Assembly: GCA_947165685.1 (NCBI GenBank)
Contig: CAMVBK010000003.1
Span: 39,299-103,298 of the forward strand
Direction: 5' to 3'
DNA length: 64,000 nucleotides
Source of the DNA: an uncultured Bacteroidales bacterium
GTDB taxonomy: Bacteria > Bacteroidota > Bacteroidia > Bacteroidales > WCHB1-69
Position 1 is the stretch's first letter. Each line of letters opens with the position of its first letter. Below the pieces are notes generated by a model that saw only the letters and a program-made list of their open reading frames with translations, was not told the DNA's origin and did no database searches. The position numbers and the translations under genes are program-made. Positions 3,192-58,899 of this stretch are shown here, in pieces.

Positions 3192-3221
3192 ATCGGCGGG
3201 CCGATGAGCTTCGAGGAGTGA
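3192..3221 (+). repeat. Copy C of the gene-end repeat (shorter)
   Basis: atcggcgggccgatgagcttcgaggagtga; matches the last 30 bp of copies A and B. Confidence 0.85.
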
Positions 3222-3247
3222 CGTGCGGCCGCTACTGCCCTTGACGA

Positions 3248-19008: not shown

Positions 19009-19091
19009 ATGGCGCGAAGATAATGTTTTTTCGGGTTGGGGCGACAATTAAGATATTTTTTTGACGACAACAGAGACAACTTGGACAACAT
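19009..19091 (-). repeat. Inverted extra copy of the about-85-bp orphan-cassette leader element
   Basis: The reverse complement aligns at about 85% by eye with 23134-23216 (gttgtc..gttgtcgtcaaaaaa..atcttaattgt..ccaacccgaaaaaa..ttatcttcgcgccat). No toxin ORF follows it. Confidence 0.75.
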
Positions 19092-19164
19092 GATTGCCCC
19101 ATGGCGGGACGGGAGGATTTTGTCGGGTATGTGTCGGTGTGGATCATGGCGCGAACTATATTCA

Positions 19165-20415
19165 TCATCGTTTCGTAATAACAAATTCCACCCGCCGGTT
19201 CAGCCTGAAGTCATCATTGCCGAAACATTTCCTACATCCCTCTCCTGACAACTTGTTGCAATCGATTAAGGGATAGTAATCATAGCATTGCTTTCCCGTA
19301 ACGTAGGACGTGTCCACACCTTTATTCCCCAAATAGAAAATAATCTCTTCGTACATATACAACAACAAGCTTATAGAATAGGAGTCATCATATTCTTTAA
19401 GTGACAGGTGTATGTCAACCTCTACGGATTTCACATCTTTATGTGAGATCAAGTAAGCCGCAATCGAATCCAAGAGAACGCGATTCTGATAGTCGTTGGT
19501 GTCCAAATGCAGAGTTACAAACTGAAAACAAATATCATGCGTTCTGAGCATCACCTTTTTAGAATCAGAATGAGCCAGCTCGTGAACGGTTTTGACCACG
19601 GGAATGGTATCGTCTCGCAAAGTCGTCTGCGCACTTCTTTTGTTTGTTGATGAAAGACTATCGGCAACCGTCACCATTATGCGACTATTGTATTTCATCG
19701 CCTTGGATTTTTCATCTGCGGGGAGATTGCGTATAAACTCCTCGTCCAAAAGGTCCTTAAAATGAAAATAGTTGTCAAATTCCTCCGGATATACTATTTG
19801 ATAAGGTTCAAAAGGATGCATAAGGACATCTATCTTTGAAGAATCCACACCATGTTGTAACAATATGTTTTTCACGCAATTTATTCTTTGTTCGCACAGT
19901 GTCTGGTCTTCTGAAATACAAAAAGCATTTAGTTGTATGATGAAATTGTTGGCTTTCTGAATTTTCCCCAACCACAAAACCGGGTATGTATAAATAGTGT
20001 TGAAATTTGTGTCGGGAACGATGCTTGCACTGTCGAAAAAGAATGCAGGCAGTTGCGGTTCTGAAAAAATGTAGTTCATTTTAACATGAATAGTTGTATC
20101 AGATAAGTTTTTTGGAATCTTTAAGTCAAAGACTTTGTCATGATAGTGGAATTTGTGAACTCTGATTCTGAATGCGTGGTCTATGGCATTGTCCAACACG
20201 AAGTGTGCGACATGGGGTTCATCAAAAGAAGGGAATACAATAGAGTCGTCGATATAAACACTATAACTGGTAACAATCTCTTCTGTCAAAGAGTCTGTGG
20301 CAAATAACGTTAATTTAACCGATTGTGTTCTTGCTATACCTGGCAATATCAACAAGATGCTTAATCCAATCCATGCAAAGATACTATTGATTTGATTCCT
20401 GCTCATATAACGCAT
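19165..20415 (-). CDS. Exported protein with two degenerate OmpA-like (peptidoglycan-binding) regions
   Basis: Has an N-terminal signal/TM segment and ends in FRLNRRVEFVITKR (OmpA C-terminal signature). A second OmpA-like stretch lies around FFFDSASIV...LCEQRINCVKNILLQHGVD. The gene is AT-rich. Confidence 0.5.
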   Translation of the reverse strand: MRYMSRNQINSIFAWIGLSILLILPGIARTQSVKLTLFATDSLTEEIVTSYSVYIDDSIVFPSFDEPHVAHFVLDNAIDHAFRIRVHKFHYHDKVFDLKIPKNLSDTTIHVKMNYIFSEPQLPAFFFDSASIVPDTNFNTIYTYPVLWLGKIQKANNFIIQLNAFCISEDQTLCEQRINCVKNILLQHGVDSSKIDVLMHPFEPYQIVYPEEFDNYFHFKDLLDEEFIRNLPADEKSKAMKYNSRIMVTVADSLSSTNKRSAQTTLRDDTIPVVKTVHELAHSDSKKVMLRTHDICFQFVTLHLDTNDYQNRVLLDSIAAYLISHKDVKSVEVDIHLSLKEYDDSYSISLLLYMYEEIIFYLGNKGVDTSYVTGKQCYDYYPLIDCNKLSGEGCRKCFGNDDFRLNRRVEFVITKR

Positions 20416-20723
20416 TCCTTTCTGTTTGCTCTTTTTCCTTCATCTCTATCATATCAGATGGCGTTTCAACAAAATCAGAGTTACTTTAATCCCGTATATT
20501 TCTTTCAATTTTAGCTGTTGATAAACCAGCAAATCATTGTTGATAAATAAATTAGCAACAACTTGCTGTTCTCGTGTCTTTCACCTGTTTTTGCGATTGC
20601 TTACTACAACAAACAATTGGCGAGAAATAAACACGGCAGCAAAAATACAAATTAAAAACGACAGAATCAACAGTTTCGTTTTTTTTCATCATCGATCAAT
20701 TTCGTTCATCCAGGCTTGCCGAA

Positions 20724-22511
20724 TTGGCTAACAAGTCATTGGGAATCAAATGGATAAATGCGGGCAGCAACTATTTCAACGATTATTCGCAGGAGGCCGT
20801 TCCCCTTTACAACGGGAACATTTCCGCCCTTTCCGAAAGTATCTATAACTTATGGAACAGAGGGATTCTAAAACTTTTCCGTTACGACAAGTTGAACAGG
20901 ATCAAAAGGATGCGAACGGCCGCACATCATTTCGAGGGGTCTGGATGGGAGACACCCTCCGACAACTTTGCCACGGATTACACCTACGACTGGAACGGAA
21001 ATTTGCTATCTTTGCGGCGCAAAAACCAATACGGCGAGGAGATGCACGATATCCGATATACGTACCCGAATGGCAACAATCGCCTGGGAAGCATAGCTGC
21101 CACCGGTATTTCATCCAGTGTCTATCAGTACGATGCGTTGGGCAACCTGGTGCGCGACAATGCCGAGGGTTTGACCGTGGGCTGGAACGCCTTGGGAAAA
21201 GTGGATACCATCCGCAGGAACGGTAACCTCCTGTCCGCATTCCGCTACAGTCCCACGGGCCAGCGGCAGGTGAAGACCGACTCCTCGGGCACGGCCTTCT
21301 ACATCCACGACGCCACGGGCAACGTGATGTGCATTTACCGGCAGGATGGCGACACCCTGAGAGCCACGGAGCGGTATCTATATGGCAGCAAGCGTTTAGG
21401 CATGTTGGAGCAACAGGTGTGGATTGCCGCGGGCGGCGTGGCACGATTGCAGGATGCCAGCACCATAGGGGCCCGTGTTTACGAGTTTACCGACCATTTG
21501 GGCAATGTGACCTACACGGCACAAGACCGGAAATACCTTGTGCCGGACAGTTATGGCCAACTTCAATATCTCCCTTCCACGGTCACCTACACCGACTACT
21601 ACCCCTTCGGCTACCCCATGCCAGGCCGAAGTTCCTACATGGGGGGTTATCGGTACTTCTTCAATGGGCAGGAGTCTGATAATGAGGTGTTTGGGGAAGT
21701 GATGAGTTTGACCGCTGAATTCTGGCAGTACGATACGAGGTTGGGCCGGAGGTGGAATGTGGACCCCGTGTTCAAGGAGTACGAGAGTCCGTATGCGTGC
21801 TTCGCGGGGAATCCGGTGCGGTTTGCGGATCCGAGAGGAAAGGATGGACGCGTTACTTATACTGAGACTGAAAATGGAGGAGACATTGTTGTTGAAACAA
21901 AATTCTTCGTTTATGGCAAAGGTGCAGAGATTGCTGTAGAAAACGCGAACAAACAGTTTGCTAAGTTAAACACATCCACTTCTGTTGTGATTGATGGAAA
22001 GACATACAATATCAGGCTGAATATCACATGGGAGGTTCGTCAAGATCTTGCAGACATGGACATTGAGAATATGGATTATGCCGATCTTCAATCAATAGAA
22101 GGGTATCAGGAAGGGGACAATTTCCTAAAAGTAGGGGTTCCCGTAGGAGGAGGAAGAACTGGTTTCCTCGGTGAAGGATACAAGGGCGGAAATACAGGTT
22201 ATTCTTTGGTAACATCCGCAGATGCGGTACTCCATGAATCTTTCCACAATCTGGGATTTAAAGATACGTATTATCAAAAAGGATTCGAACGCGACGTAAT
22301 GTCAAGTGGAGCACTTGCGGGACAAGAAATCAATCAAATTCATTACGAGGCTTTGATTCCTATTATTTTGCAAAACTATAATTACATCAAAGAACGTGTC
22401 ATTGCCAATCAGACGTTGGGGACTAACTGGCCTGTCCATAAATTGGGACTGGACATTAACAATCCGAAACAGTTTCATATTTTGCTACGAAGTATCTATC
22501 TGGATTATTAA
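20724..22511 (+). CDS. RHS repeat-associated core protein, 5'-truncated, with an HExxH C-terminal toxin domain
   Basis: YD repeats YTYDWNGNLLSL and YQYDALGNLV, plus DHLGN and YYPFG. The core end is GGYRYFFNGQESDNE..RLGRRWNVDPV..FADPRGKDG, followed by an unrelated tail containing HESFH. An in-frame stop sits at 20628 and the first start is TTG, so the usual long N-terminal shell is absent. Confidence 0.8.
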   Translation: MANKSLGIKWINAGSNYFNDYSQEAVPLYNGNISALSESIYNLWNRGILKLFRYDKLNRIKRMRTAAHHFEGSGWETPSDNFATDYTYDWNGNLLSLRRKNQYGEEMHDIRYTYPNGNNRLGSIAATGISSSVYQYDALGNLVRDNAEGLTVGWNALGKVDTIRRNGNLLSAFRYSPTGQRQVKTDSSGTAFYIHDATGNVMCIYRQDGDTLRATERYLYGSKRLGMLEQQVWIAAGGVARLQDASTIGARVYEFTDHLGNVTYTAQDRKYLVPDSYGQLQYLPSTVTYTDYYPFGYPMPGRSSYMGGYRYFFNGQESDNEVFGEVMSLTAEFWQYDTRLGRRWNVDPVFKEYESPYACFAGNPVRFADPRGKDGRVTYTETENGGDIVVETKFFVYGKGAEIAVENANKQFAKLNTSTSVVIDGKTYNIRLNITWEVRQDLADMDIENMDYADLQSIEGYQEGDNFLKVGVPVGGGRTGFLGEGYKGGNTGYSLVTSADAVLHESFHNLGFKDTYYQKGFERDVMSSGALAGQEINQIHYEALIPIILQNYNYIKERVIANQTLGTNWPVHKLGLDINNPKQFHILLRSIYLDY

Positions 22512-22515
22512 AACC

Positions 22516-23130
22516 ATGAGACTGACTACGTTAATTTTATATTTGCTGTTACCCATATTCTGTATTGGGCAAAGCAGTGCTGAACAAAAGTTCTGTTTCT
22601 GCTTTTTTGACAAATTTGGAGCAGAAGTAACCCCTTCTGAAATGCTGGTGCTGGACAACACAGGGGGTGTTTTTAATTTAGACAGTTCCAAATGTTTTCG
22701 TCATAAGGCCGACACGTCTTATTCTTTTATTTTGCAGGTGATAGACAGAAATTATTACTTTTCCCAAAAACAGTATGATGCCAATGAGATGTCGGGCTGT
22801 GACACGGTTCGATTGGAAAACATGGAGTGTATTAACAAACTCGCCTTCAGCTCTCACCGATTGAAACTGAACAACCGTCAGAAAAAGCAGATCGCCTCCT
22901 TCTTCTCAAACAGTAGGCGCGGGTTCCATCGCATTGCCATTCTTGTAGGGAAACCAACACGTGCGAAAACAGAAGCGAAACAGTGCGTCAACGATATCAT
23001 CAGATTATACGAAAAGGATTTGAAAGCAAGAAACATTCAGCAAACGCCCGAAGTGATGGTGCATTTCTACAATTTGCCTGAGGGGGGAAATACTTTTACG
23101 TTTGAGATTGAAGCGTATGATTACAAATAA
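22516..23130 (+). CDS. Putative immunity protein 1 (exported)
   Basis: Starts 5 nt after the toxin stop. Signal peptide MRLTTLILYLLLPIFCIGQSS. AT-rich with no known motif; assigned by position. Confidence 0.5.
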   Translation: MRLTTLILYLLLPIFCIGQSSAEQKFCFCFFDKFGAEVTPSEMLVLDNTGGVFNLDSSKCFRHKADTSYSFILQVIDRNYYFSQKQYDANEMSGCDTVRLENMECINKLAFSSHRLKLNNRQKKQIASFFSNSRRGFHRIAILVGKPTRAKTEAKQCVNDIIRLYEKDLKARNIQQTPEVMVHFYNLPEGGNTFTFEIEAYDYK

Positions 23131-23201
23131 CTGTTGTTCCGCGTTGTCCCCGTTGTCGTCAAAAAACACATCTTAATTGTTTCACCAACCCGAAAAAAAC
23201 T

Positions 23202-23209
23202 TATCTTCG
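23202..23209 (+). promoter_or_regulatory. -7-like box TAtcTTCG 4 nt upstream of the orphan-1 ATG
   Basis: cttatcttcgcgccATG. The same arrangement occurs at 25152-25159, with a degenerate version at 26585-26594. Confidence 0.4.
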
Positions 23210-23213
23210 CGCC

Positions 23214-24155
23214 ATGAACCACACCTCCACATACCCGCCAAAATTCCCCCGTCCCGCCATGGGGGGTTATCGGTACTTCTTCAACGGGCAGGAGGCTGAT
23301 AATGAGGTGCTTGGAGAAGGGATGAGTTTGGCCGCTGAATTTTGGCAGTACGACACGAGATTGGGCAGGAGGTGGAATGTGGACCCTGTGTTCAAGGAGT
23401 ACGAGAGTCCGTATGCGTGCTTCGCGGGGAATCCGGTATGGTTTGCGGACAGATTTGGAGCGGATACCGCATTCGACGATAACATAGCTAGAAATAATTT
23501 CTTAGAAAGTTATCAGTGGATTATTGGCCAAATATCATCAATCGAGAATAAAACTGCTGCTATTCGAGCGCAAGCTGCCCAGAAAGGATGGAATGACAAT
23601 AAAACAAATAGTAAAATCGACAAATTATTTGGTAAATACGACTACAACACGCTTCTTGAGATGAGGCAAGGATTTGAGGAAATCATGAGAGATCCTAACA
23701 TAATCGTCACATATTCAACAAACGAAGATATGATAGAAGACTTTACCGGGGGGCACACAAAACATGTTGACGACCTACATGTGAATGTATATTTCCGACG
23801 AAACAAGTTAGGGACCCTCATTCATGAATCCCGTCACGCATGGGGAGTGATAAGAAAAGAGTGGTCATTTAGAGGCGGATATGATACCACAGACGAACTA
23901 GTTGCTTTCACTTGGCAAAGTGTTAAAGATCCGACCGCAGTGAATTTATTTAAAGAAACCGTTTCAAAAATATACTATCGGAATGATTTGAGCCAAATGA
24001 TTGAAATGAGCTTGAGCAGTGCCATCAACTATTATTACATTGAAGTCTTGCATAAGAACATGACCAGAAGTGCTATACCTATACCAGAACCCTTCACTCA
24101 AATAAAAAACATTCAAACCGCAGGTTCTTATATCAGAAAACTCCTGAAAAGATAA
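23214..24155 (+). CDS. Orphan RHS C-terminal module 1 (core end plus an HExxH-containing tail)
   Basis: MNHTSTYPPKFPRPAMGGYRYFFNGQEADNE..RLGRRWNVDPVFKEYESPYACFAGNPVWFADRFG, then a unique tail containing LIHESRHAWG. Confidence 0.75.
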   Translation: MNHTSTYPPKFPRPAMGGYRYFFNGQEADNEVLGEGMSLAAEFWQYDTRLGRRWNVDPVFKEYESPYACFAGNPVWFADRFGADTAFDDNIARNNFLESYQWIIGQISSIENKTAAIRAQAAQKGWNDNKTNSKIDKLFGKYDYNTLLEMRQGFEEIMRDPNIIVTYSTNEDMIEDFTGGHTKHVDDLHVNVYFRRNKLGTLIHESRHAWGVIRKEWSFRGGYDTTDELVAFTWQSVKDPTAVNLFKETVSKIYYRNDLSQMIEMSLSSAINYYYIEVLHKNMTRSAIPIPEPFTQIKNIQTAGSYIRKLLKR

Positions 24156-24203
24156 CTTTAGTTTAGAAGAAGTATTCAATGTCCTCAAATAGTCACATAT
24201 AAA

Positions 24204-25151
24204 ATGAAACGTGCTCTTTATAATCTTGTAACATTCCTCTGTTTTCTAAACTTGCCATCGCTGCATGCACAAAACCAACCACCCGTTTGGATAGAAATTG
24301 TTCAGGGTGGCTTCCCCAATTACATAATCTTTTCACGTTATGGGGTGATTGTGTCAACGTTTGATTATAATCTCAATGACCGCTTGCACCTTTTTAATAC
24401 CTCATACTACCCGACAAGGACATTAGGTAACAGTCACATAGATAGTCTGCTTGAATATGTCGTTTTTCAGTATCAAAACTCAGAGCACAAAAAATTTATC
24501 ACTCATGATGTGTTGATATTGGATGGCTCTTATACAGAAATCAGAATCCATAACGGTCATTCAATTAACACATTAAGGACAACCGAAGAGTGCTACAGCA
24601 AAGAGATGGATATTATTGAACGAATGGCAAATCAAATCCTTAGCGAATTATCGGACTCTAACAGAATAGATCTCGGTGGGTATTGCGATCATTGTGAAAT
24701 CGTCAAAGCATCGCCTTATTGTCATTTCAAAACAATGGAGAATCCGACATTCTATGGATTTTTCTTCCAAATGATTGTTGATGACGAAGTTCTTCTTACT
24801 CTTCATGATGACCTTGGCATATTATATCAAGATACCGATGTGATTTTCATACCACGATTCCCGAACCGCGTCAAAAGGCATGAGTTCATGAATTGGAGAA
24901 AGCTGCTTTATCAAACGATAAGAACGGATATCCTCCAAAGTCAATTTGACACAACACCTTCATATACAGGTGGCTATTTGTTGGTTCGACTTGATGACAA
25001 GTGGGCATATATGAATCACGTGGACAGAAAAGTTATTAATAAATGGCTGAACAAAATGGAATGCGTCGTGCCACGCGCTTATCGCAAATCCTTCAAACGC
25101 AAAAAAACAATGATACTCCAATCGTGGAATAAAAATGTATCTAATATTTAG
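24204..25151 (+). CDS. Putative immunity protein 2 (exported)
   Basis: Signal peptide MKRALYNLVTFLCFLNLPSLHAQ. Assigned by its position after the orphan toxin. AT-rich. Confidence 0.5.
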   Translation: MKRALYNLVTFLCFLNLPSLHAQNQPPVWIEIVQGGFPNYIIFSRYGVIVSTFDYNLNDRLHLFNTSYYPTRTLGNSHIDSLLEYVVFQYQNSEHKKFITHDVLILDGSYTEIRIHNGHSINTLRTTEECYSKEMDIIERMANQILSELSDSNRIDLGGYCDHCEIVKASPYCHFKTMENPTFYGFFFQMIVDDEVLLTLHDDLGILYQDTDVIFIPRFPNRVKRHEFMNWRKLLYQTIRTDILQSQFDTTPSYTGGYLLVRLDDKWAYMNHVDRKVINKWLNKMECVVPRAYRKSFKRKKTMILQSWNKNVSNI

Positions 25152-25159
25152 TATCTTCG
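25152..25159 (+). promoter_or_regulatory. -7-like box TAtcTTCG 4 nt upstream of the orphan-2 ATG
   Basis: agtatcttcgcgccATG. Confidence 0.4.
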
Positions 25160-25163
25160 CGCC

Positions 25164-26219
25164 ATGATCCGCACCGCCACATACCCGCCCCAGCCCCCTC
25201 GTTACTATAAGGGGGGGTATCGGTACTTTTTCAACGGGCAAGAGGGAGATAACGAGGTGCTTGGGGAGGGGACTCTGCACGCCTTCGAGTACCGCATGCA
25301 CGACACGCGCACCGGGCGGTTCTGGAGCGTTGATCCCTTGGCGGGGAAGTTCCCGTGGTGGTCCACTTATCAGTTCGCAGGACTTATGCCAACATGGAGC
25401 AGAGAGCTGGAAGGGTTGGAACCGCTTAATAAAGGGAGTTATAATGGTCAAGGTGCTTATGCTCCTGTATTGGACGAAAACAATAATCCCGTTGATGGTA
25501 CAGAAGACCAAACTTGGATATGGAACAACGACACTTGGAATCAATCTGAATATGCCATTGTATATGAAATAATGAACAGTGTTTTCAAAAACGCCAAACC
25601 CTCGTTATTGAGAGGTGCCGAAGTCGCAGTAAATTTGTATGGCTCCACGTTTGGCATAAATAATCGGGAGGCTATTTGTCATTTCTTTGCGCAAGCAGGA
25701 CATGAAAGTGCTGGATTCACTAAAGTCGAAGAGAGTTTCAATTACACTGTCAAAGGTCTGTTGGGAACCTTCGGTAAATATTTCTACGTAGGAGCTCCTG
25801 TGGAAGGCAAATTTAATGCTGAAGAATATGGCCGAACAAACGATCATCCGGCAAACTATGAAGGTATTGCCAATATTGTTTATGACAATCGAATGGGTAA
25901 TGGGAAAAATGAAGGCTATTTGTATCGAGGTCGAGGATTAATACAATTAACAGGAAAGTCAAATTATCAAGCTTTTACGAACTACTTGAATAAAACGTTC
26001 ACGAACAATACAGTTGATTTTGTCCAATCACCTCAACTGGTGGCAACAGATCAATATGCGGTATTAAGTGCCATGTGGTTTTTCAAAAAGAACGTTATTG
26101 ACAAGATTGACATTGATAATGCAAGTGTAAAAGATGTGACGAAAATTGTTAATGGAGGGTATAATGGGTTGAAAGACCGCGAGAGTAAATATGAACAACT
26201 AAAAAACACTCTAAAGTGA
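25164..26219 (+). CDS. Orphan RHS C-terminal module 2 with a GH19/COG3179-like peptidoglycan hydrolase (chitinase/lysozyme) tail
   Basis: The core end is diverged: GGYRYFFNGQEGDNE..TRTGRFWSVDPLAGKFPWWSTYQFAG. The tail has ICHFFAQAGHESAGF, YRGRGLIQLTGKSNYQAF and LSAMWFF, which are GH19-type motifs. Confidence 0.75.
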   Translation: MIRTATYPPQPPRYYKGGYRYFFNGQEGDNEVLGEGTLHAFEYRMHDTRTGRFWSVDPLAGKFPWWSTYQFAGLMPTWSRELEGLEPLNKGSYNGQGAYAPVLDENNNPVDGTEDQTWIWNNDTWNQSEYAIVYEIMNSVFKNAKPSLLRGAEVAVNLYGSTFGINNREAICHFFAQAGHESAGFTKVEESFNYTVKGLLGTFGKYFYVGAPVEGKFNAEEYGRTNDHPANYEGIANIVYDNRMGNGKNEGYLYRGRGLIQLTGKSNYQAFTNYLNKTFTNNTVDFVQSPQLVATDQYAVLSAMWFFKKNVIDKIDIDNASVKDVTKIVNGGYNGLKDRESKYEQLKNTLK

Positions 26220-26581
26220 AACAATACATCTTCATTTTATTTTGGACATTAATTGGGGTATTCGTTTCTTCTGCTCAAGTCAGGATAGATTGCAATACAA
26301 AAGATTTGTATGATAATATTCAAGGCGTGTGGAGGCAAACTGATGGTTCTGGAAATGCTCTGGCAATAGTAGATAGCAATGCGTATTTTTTGTATGGCAC
26401 AGATCAAAGTGTTTGGCAAGATGATGTTGGAAACTTATTCAGCATAGTGAAAAATGACAAAGAAGAATCATTTTTTATATGGTGGTTAGATATGTTAGTT
26501 CAAGAATTTGTTTTGGAAAAAGATACATTGCTGCTGTTGGATTTTAAAGGACGTTCTGAAACGTATATTCGAATTAAGTAA
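26216..26581 (+). CDS. Putative immunity protein 3 (exported)
   Basis: GTG start overlaps the toxin stop (gtga). Signal peptide MKQYIFILFWTLIGVFVSSAQ. Confidence 0.5.
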   Translation: MKQYIFILFWTLIGVFVSSAQVRIDCNTKDLYDNIQGVWRQTDGSGNALAIVDSNAYFLYGTDQSVWQDDVGNLFSIVKNDKEESFFIWWLDMLVQEFVLEKDTLLLLDFKGRSETYIRIK

Positions 26582-26594
26582 AAACTATCGCGCC

Positions 26595-27517
26595 ATGAAT
26601 TTCACGACCACATACCCGCCAAAATCCTCCCGTTCCGCTATGGGGGTATATTGGTATTTCTTCAACGGGCAGGAGGCTGATAATGAGGTGCTTGGAGAGG
26701 GGCGAGTTTGACCGCGGAATTCTGGCAGTACGACACGAGGCTGGGCCGGAGGTGGAATGTGGACCCTGTTTTCAAGGAGTATGAAAGTCCGTATGCGTGC
26801 TTTGCAGGGAACCCGGTGTGGTTTGCGGATCCGAATGGAGACAGTAGTGTTGTTGATGCTAAAGGGTACATGATTTATTATGATGAGAACGACAAGGATT
26901 TGCGAGTTTTCATTAATGAGAACGGTAAGTTAAGACAAATTGGAGAATTAGGAAAGACAATTGAAGCAGACACTTGGTTCGCTAATTTGCTAAAAGAAAA
27001 TGCTGCCGCCGCGAAAGATTCTTGGAATCCTGTTAGCTTCAGGAACAAAGTGAAGCAGTATGGTGAGTGGGATTATAAATATGCTAGTAAAGGCAATAAA
27101 GAAAATGAGAACATCCGTTATCACTTGTTAGGCATTGCCTTTTACAGAAAAGACAAAAACAACAAGGACGCTGATTTGCCAGAGACCTATTTCTCGTTTA
27201 ATGGAATGATAGGAAGAGCCGAAGATTTGAACAACTTTCACTTTGGTGTTGTTGGCAAAGCATTCGGATGGTTCCCTGAGACCTTTATGCTAAAACAGGC
27301 TGGAAAAGCCGAAATGGATAAATGGGCGGAAGAAGGGCGGACTGTTCCTGCTGAATGGACCCCAAGAATAGAAGTTATCAAATTTCGAGGCGGAATGATA
27401 CCAACCTCTTATACCACAACAAAGTTACTGCCTCCTTACGGGGATAACCCTATTGACCATGAGTGGATAAAACGCGGATTTGAATATTATAATAATATGA
27501 CACTATCAAATGACTGA
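26595..27517 (+). pseudogene. Orphan RHS C-terminal module 3, frameshifted
   Basis: MNFTTTYPPKSSRSAMGVYWYFFNGQEADNEVLGEG stops at 26709-26711. The core continues in another frame (AEFWQYDTRLGRRWNVDPV...FADPNGDS). Compared with orphan 1, 1 nt is missing near 26697-26702. Confidence 0.7.
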
Positions 27518-27520: not shown

Positions 27521-28132
27521 ATGAACCGTATCCCACGTATAATCGTCCTATCAATTCTGATTGTCATAGGTGTCGTAGGTGTAGCTTATGTGGCAATTAT
27601 GGCGTATATACACTATGATGTGTTCGGAAAAAGTCCGTCGTATGAAGGGACCAGACAAAATTTCATCAATAATGAGTTATATTTTCAGAAGACAGAAGAT
27701 TGTTTTCAGAAAATTTTCCAATGCTGTTCTTCCGTCGATTCAACAATGGAACTCATTAGATTCACTATTGACAATTCTAGCAACAATTTTGTGTTTTTTC
27801 AATATTTTTCGATAGAAGACAGAAGGCAACTTCTATTCCCGATTAGGGATTCTGGTCTTGAAATAAGCCAAAATCAAAAAGAAACATTGCAGTCCAACGG
27901 CATCACTCCTCAAATGATAGAAACACTTTATTCTAATCTAAAAAAAACAAATTGTCGTTCGGTGGAGAAAGATAAACTAAATTCTAACAACACGATATTT
28001 ATGACTTTTAAAATACTCGATTATTGTTCTATTCAATATATGTTTTATCCTCAACCTTTTGAAGAAGATTCCATTAAGAGTCATATCTCCAACACGCCAC
28101 TCGGTCGGCGAGTAAGGATCTATGTCGAATAA
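27521..28132 (+). CDS. Putative immunity protein 4 (N-terminal membrane anchor)
   Basis: Starts 3 nt after the toxin stop. TM helix IIVLSILIVIGVVGVAYVAIMAY. Confidence 0.45.
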   Translation: MNRIPRIIVLSILIVIGVVGVAYVAIMAYIHYDVFGKSPSYEGTRQNFINNELYFQKTEDCFQKIFQCCSSVDSTMELIRFTIDNSSNNFVFFQYFSIEDRRQLLFPIRDSGLEISQNQKETLQSNGITPQMIETLYSNLKKTNCRSVEKDKLNSNNTIFMTFKILDYCSIQYMFYPQPFEEDSIKSHISNTPLGRRVRIYVE

Positions 28133-28181
28133 TTCCACAAATGTTGTCCAAGTTGTCCAAGTTGTCTTTCTAAATAAATTG

Positions 28182-28189
28182 TATCTTTG
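28182..28189 (+). promoter_or_regulatory. -7 promoter box TAtcTTTG for ATPase copy 2
   Basis: Lies 19 nt upstream of ATG 28209. Confidence 0.45.
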
Positions 28190-28208
28190 CGGCAAAAATT
28201 TTGTCATT

Positions 28209-29753
28209 ATGAAATACCCCATCGGTATACAGACATTCGCCGAAATTATCGACAAAGGATACGTCTATATAGATAAAACGGCATTGGTGTATAAACTGGC
28301 CAACAGCGGATGCTACTATTCCCTGCATCGTCCCCGCAGGTTCGGCAAGAGTCTGCTGATCACCACGTTGGAGGCCTACTTCCAAGGCCGAAAGGAATTG
28401 TTCGACGGACTGGCCATCAGCAAGTTAGAGACCGAGTGGAACCCGTATCCCGTGTTTCATATAGACCTCAACGCCGCCGACTACAGAAGCGAGGAAGCCC
28501 TGGTCTCTATCCTTGACGGGCATCTGCGACGTTTTGAAGAAACCTACGGAAAACAACCGGCGGAAGACACTCTTTCCGAACGATTCAAAGGCGTCATCCG
28601 CCGCACCTGCGAACAAGCCGGCAGGCAGGTGGTGATTCTGGTGGATGAGTACGACAAGCCGCTGTTGCAGGCCATCGGCGACGAGAAACTTCAGGACGAC
28701 TACCGCAAGATTCTGAAAGGTTTCTACGGGGTGGTCAAGACCATGGATGCGTGTATCCGTCTCGCCTTCTTCACCGGTGTGACCAAGTTCTCGAAAGTGA
28801 GCGTGTTTAGTGATCTTAACAACCTGAAAGACATTTCGTTGGACAACAGGTATGCTGAGATTTGCGGTATCACGGAGAAAGAAATCCATGACAACATTGA
28901 CGCGGAGGTGGAAAGCATGGCCTCGGCTAACGGGATGAGCAAGGACGAGTGCTATGAGAAACTGAAAAAACAGTACGACGGCTACCATTTCAGCAAGAAC
29001 GGCACAGGAATGTACAATCCTTTCAGCCTGCTTAACGCGCTTGACAGCCAAGAGTTCGGCGACCAGTGGTTCCAGTCAGGTACGCCCACATTCTTAGTGG
29101 AGGTGATGAAGCGCAACCACTATGACCTGGAACAGCTCGCCCGCGAGGAGGCCACGGCCGACCTGTTGGGCAGTCTGGATGCCATCGACACCAACCCGAT
29201 CCCGCTGCTTTATCAGAGCGGCTATCTCACCATAAAAGGCTATGACCCTGAGTTTTGCACCTATCGACTGGGGTTCCCAAACCAAGAGGTGGAACGAGGC
29301 TTTTCCCGTTTTCTATTCCGATACTACACCCCTGCTTCCCAAGGACAGGGCAGCTTTGTAAAGGATTTCGTCTTGGCGGCGCGAGCCGGCCAGACCGACG
29401 AGTTCATGAAACGGCTGGAGACATTATTCGCCGGACAAGACTACCAGATAGCGGGTGACGCGGAGCTCTACTTCCACAACGCCGTCGCGCTCATCTTCAA
29501 GATGGTGGGCTTCTACACGGAGACCGAGCGGCACACTTCCGACGGCCGCATGGACATGGTGGTGCAGACCGCCGACTACATCTACCTGTTCGAGTTCAAG
29601 TTAGACAAATCCGTCGAAGAGGCGCTGGCGCAGATCGAAGAGAGGCAATACGCCGCGCCGTTCGCCCACGACCCGCGCAAGCTCTACAAGATCGGAGTGA
29701 ACTTCTCCTCTGAAACCCGCAAGATTCAGGACTGGAAAGTGGTGGAGCGGTAA
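28209..29753 (+). CDS. AAA-ATPase-like / PD-(D/E)XK nuclease family protein (DUF1703-type), copy 2
   Basis: Colinear with copy 1 and starts with the same MKYPIGIQTF. The 28122 start of the ORF track was rejected because it runs through the promoter box. Confidence 0.8.
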   Translation: MKYPIGIQTFAEIIDKGYVYIDKTALVYKLANSGCYYSLHRPRRFGKSLLITTLEAYFQGRKELFDGLAISKLETEWNPYPVFHIDLNAADYRSEEALVSILDGHLRRFEETYGKQPAEDTLSERFKGVIRRTCEQAGRQVVILVDEYDKPLLQAIGDEKLQDDYRKILKGFYGVVKTMDACIRLAFFTGVTKFSKVSVFSDLNNLKDISLDNRYAEICGITEKEIHDNIDAEVESMASANGMSKDECYEKLKKQYDGYHFSKNGTGMYNPFSLLNALDSQEFGDQWFQSGTPTFLVEVMKRNHYDLEQLAREEATADLLGSLDAIDTNPIPLLYQSGYLTIKGYDPEFCTYRLGFPNQEVERGFSRFLFRYYTPASQGQGSFVKDFVLAARAGQTDEFMKRLETLFAGQDYQIAGDAELYFHNAVALIFKMVGFYTETERHTSDGRMDMVVQTADYIYLFEFKLDKSVEEALAQIEERQYAAPFAHDPRKLYKIGVNFSSETRKIQDWKVVER

Positions 29754-34605: not shown

Positions 34606-34746
34606 ATCTTACTCGTTAAATGAACTTGCAAAAATACATTTTTTTCGAGGTGGAACGGCACAAGGGGATTTTTCCGCAGGGCTTGCGCGTCGTTTTTTTT
34701 GACTTGGACTATTGACGATGGCTCAAACTTCTGTGAACGCCTTTTT

Positions 34747-35211
34747 TTATTGCCTTTTTGGGCGAGCCGTCACAGGGGGGCGGCGCTTCCAAGCGTCGCC
34801 AAAATTACTAATTTCTAATTGCGGCAGCTTGTTGTTCGAGACCCTCCCGTCGGCGTAGTAGTAGCGCATCTCGCCGTTGCTGGAGAACACGCCCTCGTTG
34901 CCGAGAAATTGTCCTGACCCCGGCATGTCGTCCACCGAGCCAATCCCGTGCACAAAACCGACAAAGTCACGGTACCACGGAAAAAATACCTCCTCCCCGC
35001 TCGGGTCCACCCACTGCAGCGGGTTGTTCAAACAGTACGAGTACCGGTTGTAGCTCTGCGTGAAGTCGGGCAGTTGCACGAAATTGTCGGGGGAGAAGAA
35101 GCGGGCGATCACGGGGTCGTACAGGCGGCCGTTCATGTTGATGACCTTCAGGCCGTCGTAGTGCTCGTGGCCGGTGAAGTTATGTGTGTGATTTCTAACA
35201 ACTTTATTCAT
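34747..35211 (-). CDS. Orphan RHS core-end fragment with a short truncated tail
   Basis: FTGHEHYDGLKVINMNGRLYDPVIARFFSPDNFVQ..NRYSYCLNNPLQWVDPSGE. About 187 bp are near-identical to 37592-37778. The tail shares SSNGEMRYYxADGRVSNNKLPQ with ORF 35671-36384. Confidence 0.7.
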   Translation of the reverse strand: MNKVVRNHTHNFTGHEHYDGLKVINMNGRLYDPVIARFFSPDNFVQLPDFTQSYNRYSYCLNNPLQWVDPSGEEVFFPWYRDFVGFVHGIGSVDDMPGSGQFLGNEGVFSSNGEMRYYYADGRVSNNKLPQLEISNFGDAWKRRPPVTARPKRQ

Positions 35212-35216
35212 TTCCT

Positions 35217-35669
35217 TTATAAGACTTTCGCATTGATTAATAACGACAGCATAAAGAAAGCAACAATTATCATAGTATGTAAGAGGGCAATGGCTACAAC
35301 GAGAACCATCGGTAAGACTCTTTTCAAGTTTTCAATAGATTTAACAAAAGATTCCCCGGCATAAGACAAGAACACTTCCTTTTTTTTTGCTGATGATTTT
35401 ATGGTGTAATGATCGATTACAGACAGTGAAATTACAACTAAAAGCACACCTATAAAAACAAAAAGGTAATATTCACTGTAATATTGCAATACAAGATTTG
35501 GAAAGAAAAAAGGAACAATACTCCACAACACGATCCAAATATGAAATCCCAATAATCCCAAAGCACTTGATAGTGTGGAATACATTATTTCAAGAGAAAG
35601 CCATTGATACGCTCTACTAAGCCATTTCAACCACCATGAAAAGTGAATATTTTTTGCTTGAGAATCCAT
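35217..35669 (-). CDS. Putative immunity protein (polytopic membrane protein)
   Basis: Its ATG lies 2 nt after the upstream toxin stop. It has 3-4 hydrophobic helices and is AT-rich. Confidence 0.45.
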   Translation of the reverse strand: MDSQAKNIHFSWWLKWLSRAYQWLSLEIMYSTLSSALGLLGFHIWIVLWSIVPFFFPNLVLQYYSEYYLFVFIGVLLVVISLSVIDHYTIKSSAKKKEVFLSYAGESFVKSIENLKRVLPMVLVVAIALLHTMIIVAFFMLSLLINAKVL

Positions 35670-35670
35670 G

Positions 35671-36384
35671 TTAATACATCTTTCCAAAACCGCCGAAGCT
35701 ATCTGTTGATACGTCTAATATAAAATATGTAGTACTAATTGCAAATCCTAAAGGACCGCCAAAGACACCTAAACAAGTCATGGCAAAATCTATCCCGAAT
35801 TTTGTTGTTGCCTCCCATGAAAATCCATGATTGTTGGTATATGTAAATAAATCATATCCTTCAAGACCAATAGATACAGCTGCCAATCCATTTCCTGTCC
35901 ACTTTGCCACGCTTTTGAGTGCTTTACCTGACTGTCCGATAGAATGGTTATATCTCCATGTCCTTTTAGATTCAGAAAGATTTTTAAACTTACGCCATGT
36001 CCTAGCAGATTTATACTTGCTCCTGGCTGCAAATTCAATCAGATGATACTGCGTTCCAACAGAGACTGATAACCCGTTCAACCCGTTGATATATCCGGGA
36101 TTTATGGGAGCCATATATTGGAAAGTGGTAGAGAAGCTGCCCGTCTGTCCGGAGGGGTCGCCGATGCGGTAGAAGCCCGCGCCGCGCATGGGGAAAGAGG
36201 GGAAGGCAAGCTCCGATGGATTCCCCCGGTCGATGAACACCTGCGGCAGCTTGTTGTTCGAGACCCTCCCGTCGGCGAAGTAGTAGCGCATCTCGCCGTT
36301 GCTGGAGAAGCCGTGTGTCTCCGCGTATCGCACGGATCGCGCGGATAATTCCTCAGGGCTGTATGTTCGGGGCGGGTTCGTCAT
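35671..36384 (-). CDS. Orphan toxin module with a Gly-rich hydrophobic C-terminus (putative membrane-active toxin)
   Basis: The N-terminus shares the linker SSNGEMRYYFADGRVSNNKLPQ. The C-terminus GLAAVSIGLEG...FAMTCLGVFGGPLGFAISTTYFIL..FGGFG is glycine-zipper-like. ATG 36384 was chosen, with a -7 box upstream. Confidence 0.55.
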   Translation of the reverse strand: MTNPPRTYSPEELSARSVRYAETHGFSSNGEMRYYFADGRVSNNKLPQVFIDRGNPSELAFPSFPMRGAGFYRIGDPSGQTGSFSTTFQYMAPINPGYINGLNGLSVSVGTQYHLIEFAARSKYKSARTWRKFKNLSESKRTWRYNHSIGQSGKALKSVAKWTGNGLAAVSIGLEGYDLFTYTNNHGFSWEATTKFGIDFAMTCLGVFGGPLGFAISTTYFILDVSTDSFGGFGKMY

Positions 36385-36402
36385 TTTTCTACAATTCCGT
36401 CG

Positions 36403-36410
36403 CAAAAGTA
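36403..36410 (-). promoter_or_regulatory. -7 promoter box TActTTTG (minus strand) for the orphan toxin
   Basis: The plus strand reads caaaagta, 18 nt upstream of ATG 36384. Confidence 0.4.
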
Positions 36411-36525
36411 CGATTTATTTGGTTTGATGTGCGAAATTTGTAGCGTAATATATGAACACTTCTGATGGCTTCTGATGATTCGGTTGATTCTTCTGGCAAT
36501 TATGGCATTGACCACTCGTTTTGCA

Positions 36526-37197
36526 TTAAGGTTCAAAGATGTCATCGTCAAATTCAATGTCAAAGATATTACCTTGAGGAGATGTTGGGTCGTCTGATGT
36601 TTGTGTTTTAATCAACCACCGTTCGTCGAAAGAGGTTGGATAAGGACAGCGTTTTCTGTATTTCAATTTATCTTTTTCATAATATGGGGCTTTAAGAGTG
36701 TTGTATTTGAGAATCTCATATTCATTTGTTTTTTCATCAAAATAAAGCAGGGAGATGGAACCTTTCAATATTGAAATAATTTTGTTGCTGGCCAGTTTTA
36801 TATCTTCTATGATAATTTTTTTATCACAAGGAAGAACTTCATCTGAAAATGCCGCCACTAACCAAGCTGAAGACACACTGTTTGATTTTCGAATTGTTTC
36901 ATCACAAGTAATAAAGGGTATTGTGTCCTTGCTGTTGTTAAAAAGAAGGAAAAAAGGAGTCTTGTCGTTGTCTAACAATGATGAGTCTTCAGTTTGGATT
37001 TTCATATATAATAGGTGGTAATAGATTTGGTACAAATTAATGTTGAGTCTCACGGATGATTCCCCGATATAATTTACCCTATCGAATTCATCGTTTACAT
37101 ATACAACTTCTTTTACGGTTATTGCTGCTTGAGCATTCACTCGAACAGATAATACTGAAACAATAGACGCCATCAGCGCAACCAAGATCCTGTTCAT
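36526..37197 (-). CDS. Putative immunity protein (exported)
   Basis: Signal peptide MNRILVALMASIVSVLSVRVNAQA. Lies directly downstream of the RHS tail. AT-rich. Confidence 0.5.
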   Translation of the reverse strand: MNRILVALMASIVSVLSVRVNAQAAITVKEVVYVNDEFDRVNYIGESSVRLNINLYQIYYHLLYMKIQTEDSSLLDNDKTPFFLLFNNSKDTIPFITCDETIRKSNSVSSAWLVAAFSDEVLPCDKKIIIEDIKLASNKIISILKGSISLLYFDEKTNEYEILKYNTLKAPYYEKDKLKYRKRCPYPTSFDERWLIKTQTSDDPTSPQGNIFDIEFDDDIFEP

Positions 37198-37208
37198 ACG
37201 ACAATTGC

Positions 37209-37427
37209 TTAATACTTTTTATATAATTGAGGATTTCCACTGACGACTTTTTTGAATTTTGCACTGGTTTTGGCATATATTTCTTGTGCTCGTTGATAAG
37301 CGACAGCATAAGATTCTCTTTGGAAAGGTGTCAAATTATTGAATTCCACTATGCCTAATTCCTTACATTGTTTCATGTGCCCTATTTCATTATCATAACT
37401 GCTTTTTATATCGTAATAGTTGTCCAA
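37209..37427 (-). other. Out-of-frame continuation of the RHS toxin tail (72 codons)
   Basis: Starts (TTG) inside the T6 run at the end of ORF 37406-38188 and ends 11 nt before the immunity ATG. One extra T would fuse the two frames. Confidence 0.5.
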
Positions 37428-38188
37428 AAAAGAAAATTGCGAGAAATCATTCGCACACCATCGTTACCTACCCAAGACATGTTGTCCTTGATTTGATTCC
37501 AAAAATCACGATTGATGATGTGAATTTTACCATCATCAATCCCATCTGTGCCTAAAAACACGCCATATTGGTCAAAATAATCCCCAAACATCTCCCCGCT
37601 CGGGTCCACCCACTGCAGCGGGTTGTTCAAACAGTACGAGTACCGGTTGTAGCTCTGCGTGAAGTCGGGCAGTTGCACGAAATTGTCGGGGGAGAAGAAG
37701 CGGGCGATCACGGGGTCGTACAGGCGGCCGTTCATGTTGATGACCTTCAGGCCGGCGTAGTGCTCGTGGCCGGTGAAGCCGCGGTCGAAACGGAAGGTCT
37801 CTGCCAATTGGCCTGGCTCGCCCTCTGCAAACACCGTCCAGTCGGCATCGGTCTTCACGTTGCCCCACGGGTCGAAGTGCAAAGCGCGGACCACCTGCTT
37901 GCCGCTGTTGGTGATGTGCGTGTAGCTGCCGAAACGGTCGGGATGCACGTAGTACATACTGTCAATGCCGTTGCGGCGCACGCAGATGGCGGCGAGGCCG
38001 TTTACACCATAGACGTAGTTGTAATGGGTGGTCACCCCGCCGGCTTCCACCTCCTTCTCGTAGTTGGAGCTGATGTGGTAGCGGGTGCGCACCACATGCC
38101 CGTGGTATTTGAACACTGCCTTCACCCGCTGTCCGTCGGCACCGTACTCCAACAGGAACGGCTGCTTGATTACGTGTCGTGTTTTCAT
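37406..38188 (-). CDS. RHS repeat-associated core fragment plus short tail (probably frameshifted toxin gene)
   Basis: YYVHPDRFGSYTHITN..LHFDPWGN..FTGHEHYAGLKVINMNGRLYDPVIARFFSPDNF..NRYSYCLNNPLQWVDPSGE. Only about 200 aa of the shell are present. Confidence 0.75.
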   Translation of the reverse strand: MKTRHVIKQPFLLEYGADGQRVKAVFKYHGHVVRTRYHISSNYEKEVEAGGVTTHYNYVYGVNGLAAICVRRNGIDSMYYVHPDRFGSYTHITNSGKQVVRALHFDPWGNVKTDADWTVFAEGEPGQLAETFRFDRGFTGHEHYAGLKVINMNGRLYDPVIARFFSPDNFVQLPDFTQSYNRYSYCLNNPLQWVDPSGEMFGDYFDQYGVFLGTDGIDDGKIHIINRDFWNQIKDNMSWVGNDGVRMISRNFLFWTTITI

Positions 38189-38195
38189 GACTATG

Positions 38196-38525
38196 CTACT
38201 TTTTCACGATTTTCCAGGTCTCCGTTTTTCCGTTCAATGCGATGGTCAGCATATAAACTCCTGTTTTATACGCTGAAAGATCTATGGTTATCGTTGTTCC
38301 GGTAATCCACGCCTCTGAAAGCAGCTGTCCTGCCAGATTGGAAAGCCGGTAATAGCTGCCGGCAACAGGCTGCCCGAACTGCAACGATTTAGCATCGACC
38401 TCAATCGTGGATCGCAGAATGCGGTTGCCTGCGGCGTCGTAGTCATAGGTGCGGGGGAGGTTTTCCTGGGCGAGGCACGAAAGAACGATAAACGATGCCA
38501 GCGACAACACGATGATTTTCTTCAT
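38196..38525 (-). CDS. Mini-protein: signal peptide + single YD repeat + T9SS type-A C-terminal sorting domain
   Basis: MKKIIVLSLASFIVLSCLAQ, then TYDYDAAGNRILR, then YRLSNLAGQLL...IDLSAYKTGVYMLTIALNGKTETWKIVKK (Por secretion tail pattern). Its stop lies 7 nt before the RHS fragment ATG. Confidence 0.55.
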   Translation of the reverse strand: MKKIIVLSLASFIVLSCLAQENLPRTYDYDAAGNRILRSTIEVDAKSLQFGQPVAGSYYRLSNLAGQLLSEAWITGTTITIDLSAYKTGVYMLTIALNGKTETWKIVKK

Positions 38526-38741
38526 TGTTTCTTATTTCTTGAGATTTAATTGGGTGAGCTCCCGTAGGGGAAATTCCGCATATTCACCTTTCACCCAGTC
38601 TCCGGCAACAGTGCGAAGCCCACCAAACAGTATGAAAGAAAAATATCGCGGCAAAATTAATACAAAATACAATACACTAAGCCAAGCATTTTTCGAAAAA
38701 TTTCATACCAACAGCAACGGAGTGCTGTGCGGCCTTTCCGT

Positions 38742-57302: not shown

Positions 57303-57323
57303 TCCCGTTAAAATTTCAATACG

Positions 57324-58265
57324 ATGCCCCGAGGAAAATCCACATGCAAGGTCCTGAAGGAGGTGCGGCGGAGGGTCGCCGAAGCCAACAACATCCCGCT
57401 GCAGGAGCGCGAATGCACTCACACGGGCGACTGCGCGGGCACGTGCCCCTACTGCGAGTCGGAGGTGCGCTACCTCGAACGCGAACTGTCGAAACGCCGC
57501 GCCCTCGGCAAGGCCGTCGCAGTGGCGGGCATCGCGATGCTGTCGGTGGCACCGGCGGTCGCGCAGACACCGGAGACCCCTGAAGCCGGCACCGGACCGC
57601 AAAAACACGCCGGCCCGACTATCCCTGCGGCTCCGGATTCCGCGAAACCCTGCGACACCTACCGGATGATGGGCATCGTCCCGAAAGAGGTTGCTGAACA
57701 GGAAGTTGACACAGCCGCTGAATCAGACCTCCCGACAAGTTTGGACACTATAGAGGTGGTTTTTGAACCGCCTGAATTTGCTATGGACGGCACGGTGTCG
57801 GCCCCACGATCGGTCAGAAAAGACGTGTGGCGTTTCCCTTCTGAATATGGCACATTCAAGTCTTTCATGCACCGTCAATTGAAAAACAATCCGGAATTGC
57901 GGAAGTGGCTCAAGGGAAAAACGAAACTGGATCATGCAAAACGGTCAGAAATAAAACACTCCCGTGATCCTATTGAGCGTATGATGGAAAAACAATGGAA
58001 AAAAGAAAGACGTCAATATCGGAAAGAGGAGCGTTCCTCGAAGTACAAATCCGTCAATGACAATGCTTTCCTTCTGGAATTCAATCAAGACGGCGAGGTG
58101 GTGGATGTCCGTCTGCGTTTTGCGATTTCAGGAGAAGAGGACGAGCGCATGTTTGGCGCCTTTTACCGTATTATCGACAACATGCCCCGTTGGACACTCA
58201 ACCCCAAGATGTCCCCACCTACGGATATGATATTCCAGGAATATCCTTATTGGATCTTGCGGTGA
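57324..58265 (+). CDS. Cys-rich N-terminal domain / single TM / TonB-C-like periplasmic domain protein, paralog 1
   Basis: MPRGKSTCKVLKEVRRRVAEANNIPLQERECTHTGDCAGTCPYCESEVRYLE, then TM AVAVAGIAMLSVAPAVA. The C-terminus LLEFNQDGEVVDV....MPRWT resembles the TonB_C fold pattern. Confidence 0.55.
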   Translation: MPRGKSTCKVLKEVRRRVAEANNIPLQERECTHTGDCAGTCPYCESEVRYLERELSKRRALGKAVAVAGIAMLSVAPAVAQTPETPEAGTGPQKHAGPTIPAAPDSAKPCDTYRMMGIVPKEVAEQEVDTAAESDLPTSLDTIEVVFEPPEFAMDGTVSAPRSVRKDVWRFPSEYGTFKSFMHRQLKNNPELRKWLKGKTKLDHAKRSEIKHSRDPIERMMEKQWKKERRQYRKEERSSKYKSVNDNAFLLEFNQDGEVVDVRLRFAISGEEDERMFGAFYRIIDNMPRWTLNPKMSPPTDMIFQEYPYWILR

Positions 58266-58890: not shown

Positions 58891-58899
58891 TTATTAACG

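Follow-up and report, generated by a model that had tools for sequence, protein, structure and literature searches.

Array B of an uncultured Bacteroidales bacterium, a probable SpvB-RHS toxin locus in decay with orphan cassettes

We analysed a 64-kb stretch of DNA from an uncultured Bacteroidales bacterium (contig CAMVBK010000003.1; the whole stretch is called the window) and followed up one element within it, array B, a series of RHS toxin gene fragments and candidate immunity genes on the minus strand at 34747-38525. [quoted passage not shown] It is a relic of an ordinary type and not a new class of short toxins; as found, it is a further example of a degenerate rhs locus, this time from an uncultured lineage of rumen Bacteroidales. 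An earlier, sequence-only reading of this DNA had described array B as an RHS toxin/immunity array, and our analysis supports that description.

Results

The lead gene and its full-length relatives

All six open reading frames (ORFs) previously proposed for array B are present on the minus strand with unchanged boundaries (Table 1). They encode, in order of transcription, a mini-protein, an RHS shell/core remnant (the stub) that runs into the remains of a first toxin (toxin 1), immunity candidate 3, orphan toxin 4, immunity candidate 5 and piece 6, the start of a further orphan cassette. The two RHS core ends recognised by the sequence-only reading were confirmed with the TIGR03696 profile, which scored 62.9 bits (E 3e-17) on the stub and 59.7 bits (E 3e-16) on piece 6 at a cutoff of 32.5.

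The N-terminus of the lead gene matches an intact gene on a 1529-nt contig (L103), and DNA identity between the two ends at ~38166, 22 nt into the RHS ORF. The window junction reads MKTRHVIKQPFLLEYGADGQRVK, while the LLEYG motif is found at residues ~1550-1570 in full-length proteins; the stub aligns to residues 1550-1738 of a 1986-aa protein (L005) and to residues 1566-1755 of a 2059-aa protein (L023), with 73-82% identity. Because identity to L103 stops at the joint and LLEYG sits so far into the full-length proteins, we conclude that codons 1-7 of the lead gene have been joined in frame to its final ~190 shell/core residues, with the loss of ~1540 codons (~4.6 kb). At the DNA level a second in-frame deletion, of 27 nt, is seen at this joint. 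The lead-gene deletion is common to every same-species contig that covers the gene start, same-species contigs being those with an identical LptB or the same mini-protein. The lead gene had been described as decapitated, with about 200 aa of shell left; the short remnant stands, but this is not a plain decapitation: the start and seven codons are kept and the deletion is internal.

Searching the 64-kb window by tblastn with two full-length relatives revealed no further shell segment, and neither the domain search nor tblastn detected the SpvB, FG-GAP or TcdB middle domains there. The stub has no match to Pfam RHS_repeat and retains ~185 residues upstream of the core end, versus more than 1000 for a closed shell. 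Its N-terminus, MKTRHVIKQPFLLEYG, contains no hydrophobic segment; the intact L103 gene has a signal peptide. As the signal peptide and the cocoon are gone, the stub product would be neither exported nor able to encapsulate a toxin. The DPSGE sequence at its core end is a DPxG-type cleavage motif, and an exact-sequence look-up of the 260-aa ORF product returned no record.

The mini gene of other Bacteroidales is placed 7-8 nt 5' of a ~2000-aa gene (1986 aa in L005). The product of this large gene displays a signal peptide, SpvB, FG-GAP and TcdB_toxin_midN domains and RHS repeats, followed by a core like that of array B and by a C-terminus that varies; L009-L013 likewise have SpvB/FG-GAP/TcdB. 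A scan of one genome per GTDB species yielded 77 related loci, mostly in metagenome-assembled genomes of rumen and termite-gut Bacteroidales, with the best representative match at 81% protein identity. The match falls inside an ORF of 1900-2200 aa in ~45 of the 77 loci, and a mini-protein homologue is encoded directly upstream in at least 30. A word-index homologue search with the stub returned proteins of at most 455 aa for all 120 of its 120 best matches. A short-protein RHS family built on that list was rejected, since the GTDB scan shows full-length genes in the majority and the list reflects word-index bias together with orphans and contig fragments. Length distributions from word-indexed homologue searches should not be taken as biology.

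On L103, an intact mini gene with 95% DNA identity to the 149-aa allele of the present locus is followed by MKTQHVINRSGLIMLLCLLGLVVKAQNTSLPVG..., an intact signal peptide and the start of SpvB. The 5' flank of this mini gene differs from that in the window and holds a P-loop NTPase-like gene (GKTT motif, identified by eye). L103 may thus represent another locus, still functional, either of this species or of a sister species.

Erosion of the toxins and variation between strains

The tail of the lead RHS piece had been noted to continue out of frame to 37209, and this is confirmed; the out-of-frame 72-aa ORF results from a 217-nt deletion in toxin 1. This frameshifting deletion is shared by the window and L020 and is absent in L016, L017, L019 and L022. 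A programmed frameshift at the T-run near 37425 was considered and rejected, as the intact alleles reveal the deletion.

The commonest form of the locus, seen in L017 and nine similar contigs, carries an intact 398-aa toxin 1 allele (P0001), immunity 3 and further cassettes. L002 is 99.97% identical to the window over the mini/stub junction, L020 is collinear with it over 38157-33401 including the 217-nt deletion, and L016, L019 and L022 agree with one another in how toxin 4, immunity 5 and piece 6 succeed each other. Other strains have lost more. The 5' half of the mini gene is gone in L016, piece 6 has frameshifts or a stop in other strains, and L001, L003, L015 and, nearly so, L014 are without a 3196-nt segment, so that a 127-aa stub is joined directly to the flank with the Polyketide_cyc2 gene. 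This loss likely arose by recombination between shell copies, since the L017 array ends in a second copy of the shell segment 38027-37871 joined to 34674, at the same flank position. Immunity 3 is intact in every strain that has the array.

Selection was assessed as pN/pS, the ratio of non-synonymous to synonymous polymorphism, from segregating sites among strain contigs, using a Fisher test against the pooled flanks (pN/pS 0.13; 184 synonymous and 82 non-synonymous). The ratio is raised to 0.25 in the RHS stub (p 0.016), 0.39 in toxin 4 (p 0.004) and 0.42 in piece 6 (p 0.0006). It does not differ significantly from the flanks in immunity 3 (0.15) or in the mini-protein (0.09; 11 synonymous, 3 non-synonymous), and immunity 5 has one polymorphic site among 6 sequences, which is synonymous. 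The toxin fragments look relaxed, and constraint on immunity 3, immunity 5 and the mini-protein seems no weaker than on the genes at either side. Altogether, the same-species contigs display an unusually clean order of disarmament: the main gene went first, then, in different strains, the sorting domain of the mini-protein, a toxin or the whole array, and the immunity genes stayed constrained.

Table 1. Features of array B and its immediate surroundings in the window.
Feature	Position	Strand	Description
Promoter-like -7 motif TAATTTTG	38652-38659	-	134 nt 5' of the mini-protein ATG; matches consensus TAnnTTTG
Mini-protein	38196-38525	-	109 aa; signal peptide, YD motif TYDYDAAGNRILR, shortened T9SS type A sorting domain
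Lead-gene codons 1-7 (MKTRHVI)	38168-38188	-	From the ancestral ~2000-aa SpvB-RHS gene; 7 nt past the mini-protein stop
Entire RHS ORF	38188-37406	-	260 aa
RHS shell/core remnant (stub)	37592-38167	-	TIGR03696 residues 106-198 at 37873-37595; DPSGE end at 37606-37592
Toxin 1, N-terminal 50 residues, then frameshifted tail to premature stop	37406-37591	-	By comparison with the 398-aa allele P0001, L016, L017, L019, L022
Junction of the 217-nt deletion in toxin 1	37436-37439	-	4-nt microhomology; blastn coordinates
Toxin 1, C-terminal part, out of frame	37209-37427	-	72-aa ORF with NEIGH motif
Immunity candidate 3	36526-37197	-	223 aa; N-terminal signal peptide
Orphan leader	36310-36440	-	Promoter-like -7 motif TACTTTTG at 36410-36403; ATG at 36384; 25 codons to ...RSVRYAETHG
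Orphan toxin 4	35671-36384	-	Leader and toxin domain, without RHS shell or core
Immunity candidate 5	35217-35669	-	150-aa polytopic membrane protein; about 3-4 hydrophobic segments
Piece 6, start of a further orphan cassette	34747-35211	-	154 aa; core end from FTGHEHY and first ~60 residues of a toxin-4-type C-terminus, ending ...NNKLPQ
Segment deleted in some strains	34675-37870	-	3196 nt, whole array

Toxins, immunity candidates and the orphan leader

Pfam, NCBIfam, PADLOC and PDB sequence searches returned nothing significant for the toxin and immunity sequences of the window. The intact form of toxin 1 has homologues at 38-61% identity, and 5 of the 8 tested pass the gathering score of the metallopeptidase toxin family Tox-MPTase2 (PF15638), with 27.6-37 bits versus 25; neither the window sequence nor the intact allele P0001 reaches that profile. 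The toxin 1 alignment displays the pattern [H/N]ExxH...E with E, H and E invariant, which in this lineage reads NEIGH and is out of frame in the window. Immunity 3, which has no family match, is likely cognate to toxin 1, judging from conserved adjacency: by eye, from the N-termini, a signal-peptide protein like immunity 3 is encoded after the full-length gene of L027, which has a toxin-1-like C-terminus, although tblastn at E<=1e-4 did not detect an immunity-3-like protein in L027. Export of immunity 3 suggests that its toxin acts on a periplasmic target.

Toxin 4 has 68% identity to residues 1774-1985 of L005, the C-terminal toxin of that full-length protein, while piece 6 aligns to residues 1677-1799, so that the single L005 gene spans the stub, piece 6 and piece 4 in that order. 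From these alignments, pieces 4 and 6 are two incomplete cassettes of one putative membrane-toxin type, which accounts for a 68-nt direct repeat between them (34820-34887 = 36242-36309, 99%). Circular permutation of a single toxin was also considered for pieces 6 and 4 and was replaced by two successive cassettes, one without its 5' end and one without its 3' end. The junction from immunity 5 to the core fragment is the same in L023 and L028 as in the window.

The C-terminus of toxin 4 is glycine-rich and hydrophobic. Members of its family repeatedly give weak matches to the Bfe1 family of type VI secretion effectors (NF053698) over about the C-terminal 100 residues, with E values from 2e-4 to 0.09; at 12-21 bits against a curated cutoff of 315, and over profile positions ~205-305 only, this is a resemblance and not membership. 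The matched region of Bfe1 overlaps the part predicted to be transmembrane (PMC13035841). Our best guess for the activity of toxin 4 would be membrane damage. Homologues of immunity 5 directly follow toxin-4 homologues in L023 (79-91% identity) and in L005 and L093 (about 30%), and we infer from this conserved adjacency that immunity 5 is cognate to toxin 4. Toxin 4 and immunity 5 together match orphan pairs in L023, L005 and L027 and have the make-up of an orphan rhs-CT/immunity module, with the departure that toxin 4 has no core and carries a conserved ATG leader.

This leader of ~130 nt recurs, with its DNA sequence conserved, at the start of orphans from other species (L009 17334-17470, L023 11939-12075 and L104-L109). 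Its product, ...R[S/Y]xRYAE[T/I][H/N]G, is fused in frame at three different points: to the shell at LAAICVRR, to the core at FTGHEHY and, in the window, to the toxin linker. We read the core and toxin-linker fusions as probable internal deletions of the shell fusion. A -7-like motif precedes the toxin-4 ATG by 26 nt, and the leader may keep the downstream immunity gene transcribed.

The mini-protein and its 149-aa family

The 109-aa mini-protein matches TIGR04183 with 35.4 bits (E 7.8e-9; cutoff 23) over profile positions 17-72 only, and PF18962 with 24.5 bits, under the cutoff of 27, over positions 24-74 of 75. Its homologues are 148-149 aa long, and in the alignment the window copy has an internal gap of 40 residues that takes away, among others, the conserved strands with which the sorting domain begins (KVFPNPTHG...). 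The 149-aa form is kept in L100-L102, which are contigs of the same locus, and the window copy displays a 120-nt in-frame deletion with 9-nt microhomology at 38386-38378. On alignment, the mini-protein is thus best described as a derivative, by a 40-codon in-frame deletion, of a 149-aa T9SS sorting-domain family. The AlphaFold2 model of the 149-aa form has a beta-hairpin at residues 20-43 (predicted local distance difference test, pLDDT, 80-85), a disordered linker at 47-62 and a beta-sandwich at 65-148 (pLDDT about 90). Its top fold matches include T9SS sorting domains, namely those of mirolase (8qb1), NucA in the translocon (8glk_D) and PorZ (5m11).

A widespread conserved pair is found in the intact relatives, a ~149-aa YD/T9SS sorting protein followed by a ~2000-aa SpvB-RHS protein, an adjacency noted once in the literature (PMC8125069). 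SpvB/TcdB-type Rhs genes adjoining T9SS sorting-domain genes were noted there in Apibacter with no mechanism given (Steele and Moran 2021). That case is one of adjacency only; here the partner is defined as a protein of ~149 aa with an invariant YD motif, whose gene precedes the RHS gene at 30 or more of the GTDB loci, and the window has only a broken copy of the pair. Tentatively, and with more doubt than confidence, the 149-aa partner, with its signal peptide, invariant YD hairpin, flexible linker and sorting domain, could be a trans-acting secretion adaptor that carries a ~220-kDa toxin capsule through the T9SS. The SpvB-RHS cocoon, itself equipped with a signal peptide but lacking a sorting domain, would be bound by the YD hairpin, and the orphan cassettes would carry a promoter-bearing leader so that the immunity genes stay expressed. 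If this were true, the window would be a natural knockout series of such a secretion system.

Composition, repeats and flanks

The toxin and immunity parts of array B have ~35% GC, versus 55-60% GC in the flanks. The core end is present as a 187-nt direct repeat (34993-35179 = 37592-37778, 99%). On one side, array B is flanked by the gene of a T9SS-sorted FG-GAP protein (40931-38742), and on the other by the Polyketide_cyc2 gene and lptB. The TAnnTTTG motif, which resembles the Bacteroidetes -7 element, occurs at 5 sites on the minus strand in 4.1 kb, versus ~1.8 expected from the window-wide density. No recombinase gene is found among the ORFs or domain matches in or beside array B, and a recombinase-driven cassette system was rejected for that reason.

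Discussion

The course of events that we favour would start from an intact system as seen in relatives, with a 149-aa protein followed by a ~2000-aa RHS protein, its cognate immunity gene and orphan cassettes made of partial shell/core, toxin and immunity gene. An in-frame deletion of ~4.6 kb would have fused codon 7 to the last ~190 shell/core residues. Later erosion would comprise the toxin 1 frameshift, the loss of part of the mini-protein sorting domain, a toxin 4 left without its RHS part, a last cassette cut short and, in other strains, deletion of the array. The exported immunity 3 and the membrane protein immunity 5 would probably still protect against the same toxins when these are fired by neighbours, and both could be transcribed from the mini-protein promoter and from the promoter-like motif in the orphan leader. 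Simple decay was the outcome that the sequence-only reading had set against its own proposal, and it is nearly what we observe, with full-length genes in relatives and raised pN/pS; the two immunity genes, which look conserved, are the part that does not fit.

Several observations weigh against decay as the full account. A pN/pS of 0.25-0.42 is relaxed, yet not neutral, and the intact 398-aa toxin 1 allele displays no clear relaxation (5 synonymous, 3 non-synonymous). The mini-protein is still constrained despite its shortened sorting domain, which may reflect a kept function, a recent deletion or gene conversion by an intact paralogue, L103 being an example. Neither the main deletion nor that of orphan 4 disturbs the reading frame, and in the orphans an ATG leader with a promoter-like motif is conserved; either observation could mean that some expression is selected. 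The stub has about double the synonymous diversity of the flanks (37 sites per 130 synonymous sites), a hint of exchange with paralogous copies of rhs. Besides, few polymorphisms could be counted, and the counts may be distorted by recombination with paralogues. Finally, our view covers 64 kb, and an intact paralogue elsewhere could use the array as a store of cassettes, L103 showing that such a gene exists in some close relative.

That last point amounts to a rival explanation, in which array B is unexpressed and is kept because homologous recombination lets an intact SpvB-RHS gene elsewhere in the genome acquire toxin 1 or toxin 4, each along with its immunity gene. The recombination mechanism of orphan rhs genes is established (PMC3967940, PMC3150448), and the orphan rhs fragments of Salmonella act in this way. 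The full-length gene of L103 stands behind a mini gene with 95-98% DNA identity at a different genomic site, and the excess synonymous diversity of the stub likewise points to exchange between paralogues. However, tblastn finds no full-length copy in the window, toxin 1 is frameshifted, toxin 4 is without the core homology needed for recombination, and several strains have lost the array. We therefore regard a cassette store as unlikely, although it is compatible with decay rather than opposed to it.

Much less probable still is the proposal of the sequence-only reading that function or selection acts on short RHS C-terminal proteins, made up of ~200 aa of shell, the core and a toxin, which would be working toxins with starts of their own. 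The in-frame deletions, the conserved ATG leader and promoter-like motif of the orphans and the many core-bearing ORFs of 300-450 aa in relatives speak for it. There is, however, no preferred short unit, because in 34 short core-bearing ORFs of the related loci the stretch kept before the core end varies continuously between 12 and 312 residues. Full-length genes are the majority (~45 of 77 loci) in the GTDB scan, which does not reproduce the short-only list, and the stub has lost ~1540 residues along with the signal peptide and has no other export signal. Judging from the structures of RHS/TcB-TcC shells, an RHS cocoon is not expected to close with ~190 of ~1300 residues. The frameshifted toxin in the window, the array deletions in other strains and the raised pN/pS (0.25-0.42 versus 0.13) are further evidence against such a unit. 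Misassembly of a repetitive RHS region, as a source of the repeats and truncations, is next to negligible as an explanation: repeats abound in RHS regions and a good number of the related contigs have little length, but the structure is reproduced in the independent assemblies L002, L020, L016, L019 and L022.

Gut Bacteroidales reportedly hold orphan immunity genes in acquired interbacterial defence islands. Array B resembles the orphan immunity and defence islands of these bacteria (PMC12247911) in that immunity genes are kept without a usable cognate toxin, apparently under purifying selection. In contrast to those islands, array B has only two immunity genes and no recombinase gene seen in or beside it, its toxins are borne by RHS proteins and are not T6SS (type VI secretion system) effectors, and several strains have lost both immunity genes.

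Arrays of a main gene and orphan rhs genes, and their rearrangement, have been described in Enterobacteriaceae (Poole 2011, PMC3150448; Koskiniemi 2014, PMC3967940; Jackson 2009, PMC2935791). As in those arrays, array B has tandem cassettes on the same strand, each with a core piece, a variable C-terminal toxin and an immunity gene, together with toxin/immunity parts of low GC, variation between strains, and core repeats so nearly identical that they favour deletion and rearrangement. Array B differs in that its main gene is gutted and the locus holds no functional acceptor. The RHS protein also differs from the PAAR/VgrG-linked T6SS type of Enterobacteriaceae, being an SpvB/TcdB (Tc-toxin-like) protein with a Sec signal peptide. 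Moreover, the array B orphans have a conserved ATG leader and a promoter-like motif, whereas the Salmonella orphan is reported to be without translation-initiation signals (PMC3967940).

The ancestral protein is comparable to the TcB-TcC cocoon of the Tc toxins of Photorhabdus and Yersinia, sharing SpvB, an FG-GAP propeller, the TcdB middle domain, an RHS shell, an autoproteolytic core and a C-terminal toxic domain. Unlike Tc toxins, the protein of the relatives consists of one polypeptide, which bears a signal peptide; a TcA partner was not seen, and the downstream immunity genes point to bacterial targets; in the window, only the last ~190 shell/core residues survive from this domain set.

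Array A and other features of the window

A second RHS array, array A (~20588-27517), had been taken to represent an independent core lineage, and this is borne out: tblastn of full-length array-B-type proteins against it gave no match at E<=1e-3, and the array A ORFs match TIGR03696 weakly. The observation that both lead genes are shortened also holds. The 595-aa lead of array A aligns to residues 1678-2047 of a 2249-aa protein with 78% identity, and to similar positions in many proteins of 2200-3700 aa, so that it corresponds to the C-terminal quarter of a ~2250-aa protein. The two truncated loci had been used as an argument for function; instead, they fit a lineage that gave up its RHS weapons and keeps remnants of them.

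Array A is bracketed by two paralogues of the AAA-ATPase_like/PDDEXK_9 type in inverted orientation (17380-18924 on the minus strand and 28122-29753 on the plus strand). In L018 the array A segment is inverted relative to the window, and the segment thus flips between strains. The adjoining region 19032-20587, at the 5' end of the array A lead, is absent from L018 and holds a 416-aa ORF (19165-20415, minus strand) with no Pfam or NCBIfam match. An extra 141-aa DUF559 gene is present in L016 (11261-11686) and L019 (5221-5646) between 23S_rRNA_IVP and TPR genes, and the window is without it (~33100), a further insertion beside the locus that differs between strains. Elsewhere, a 47-nt repeat of 72-100% identity occurs at 1005-1051, 1816-1862 and 3179-3225, its first two copies spanning the ends of the ORFs 295-1047 and 1315-1815. 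Finally, a 228-nt direct repeat of 94% identity (57321-57548 and 58897-59124) marks two paralogous ORFs of ~313 aa (57324-58265 and 58900-59838), for which Pfam and NCBIfam returned no match.

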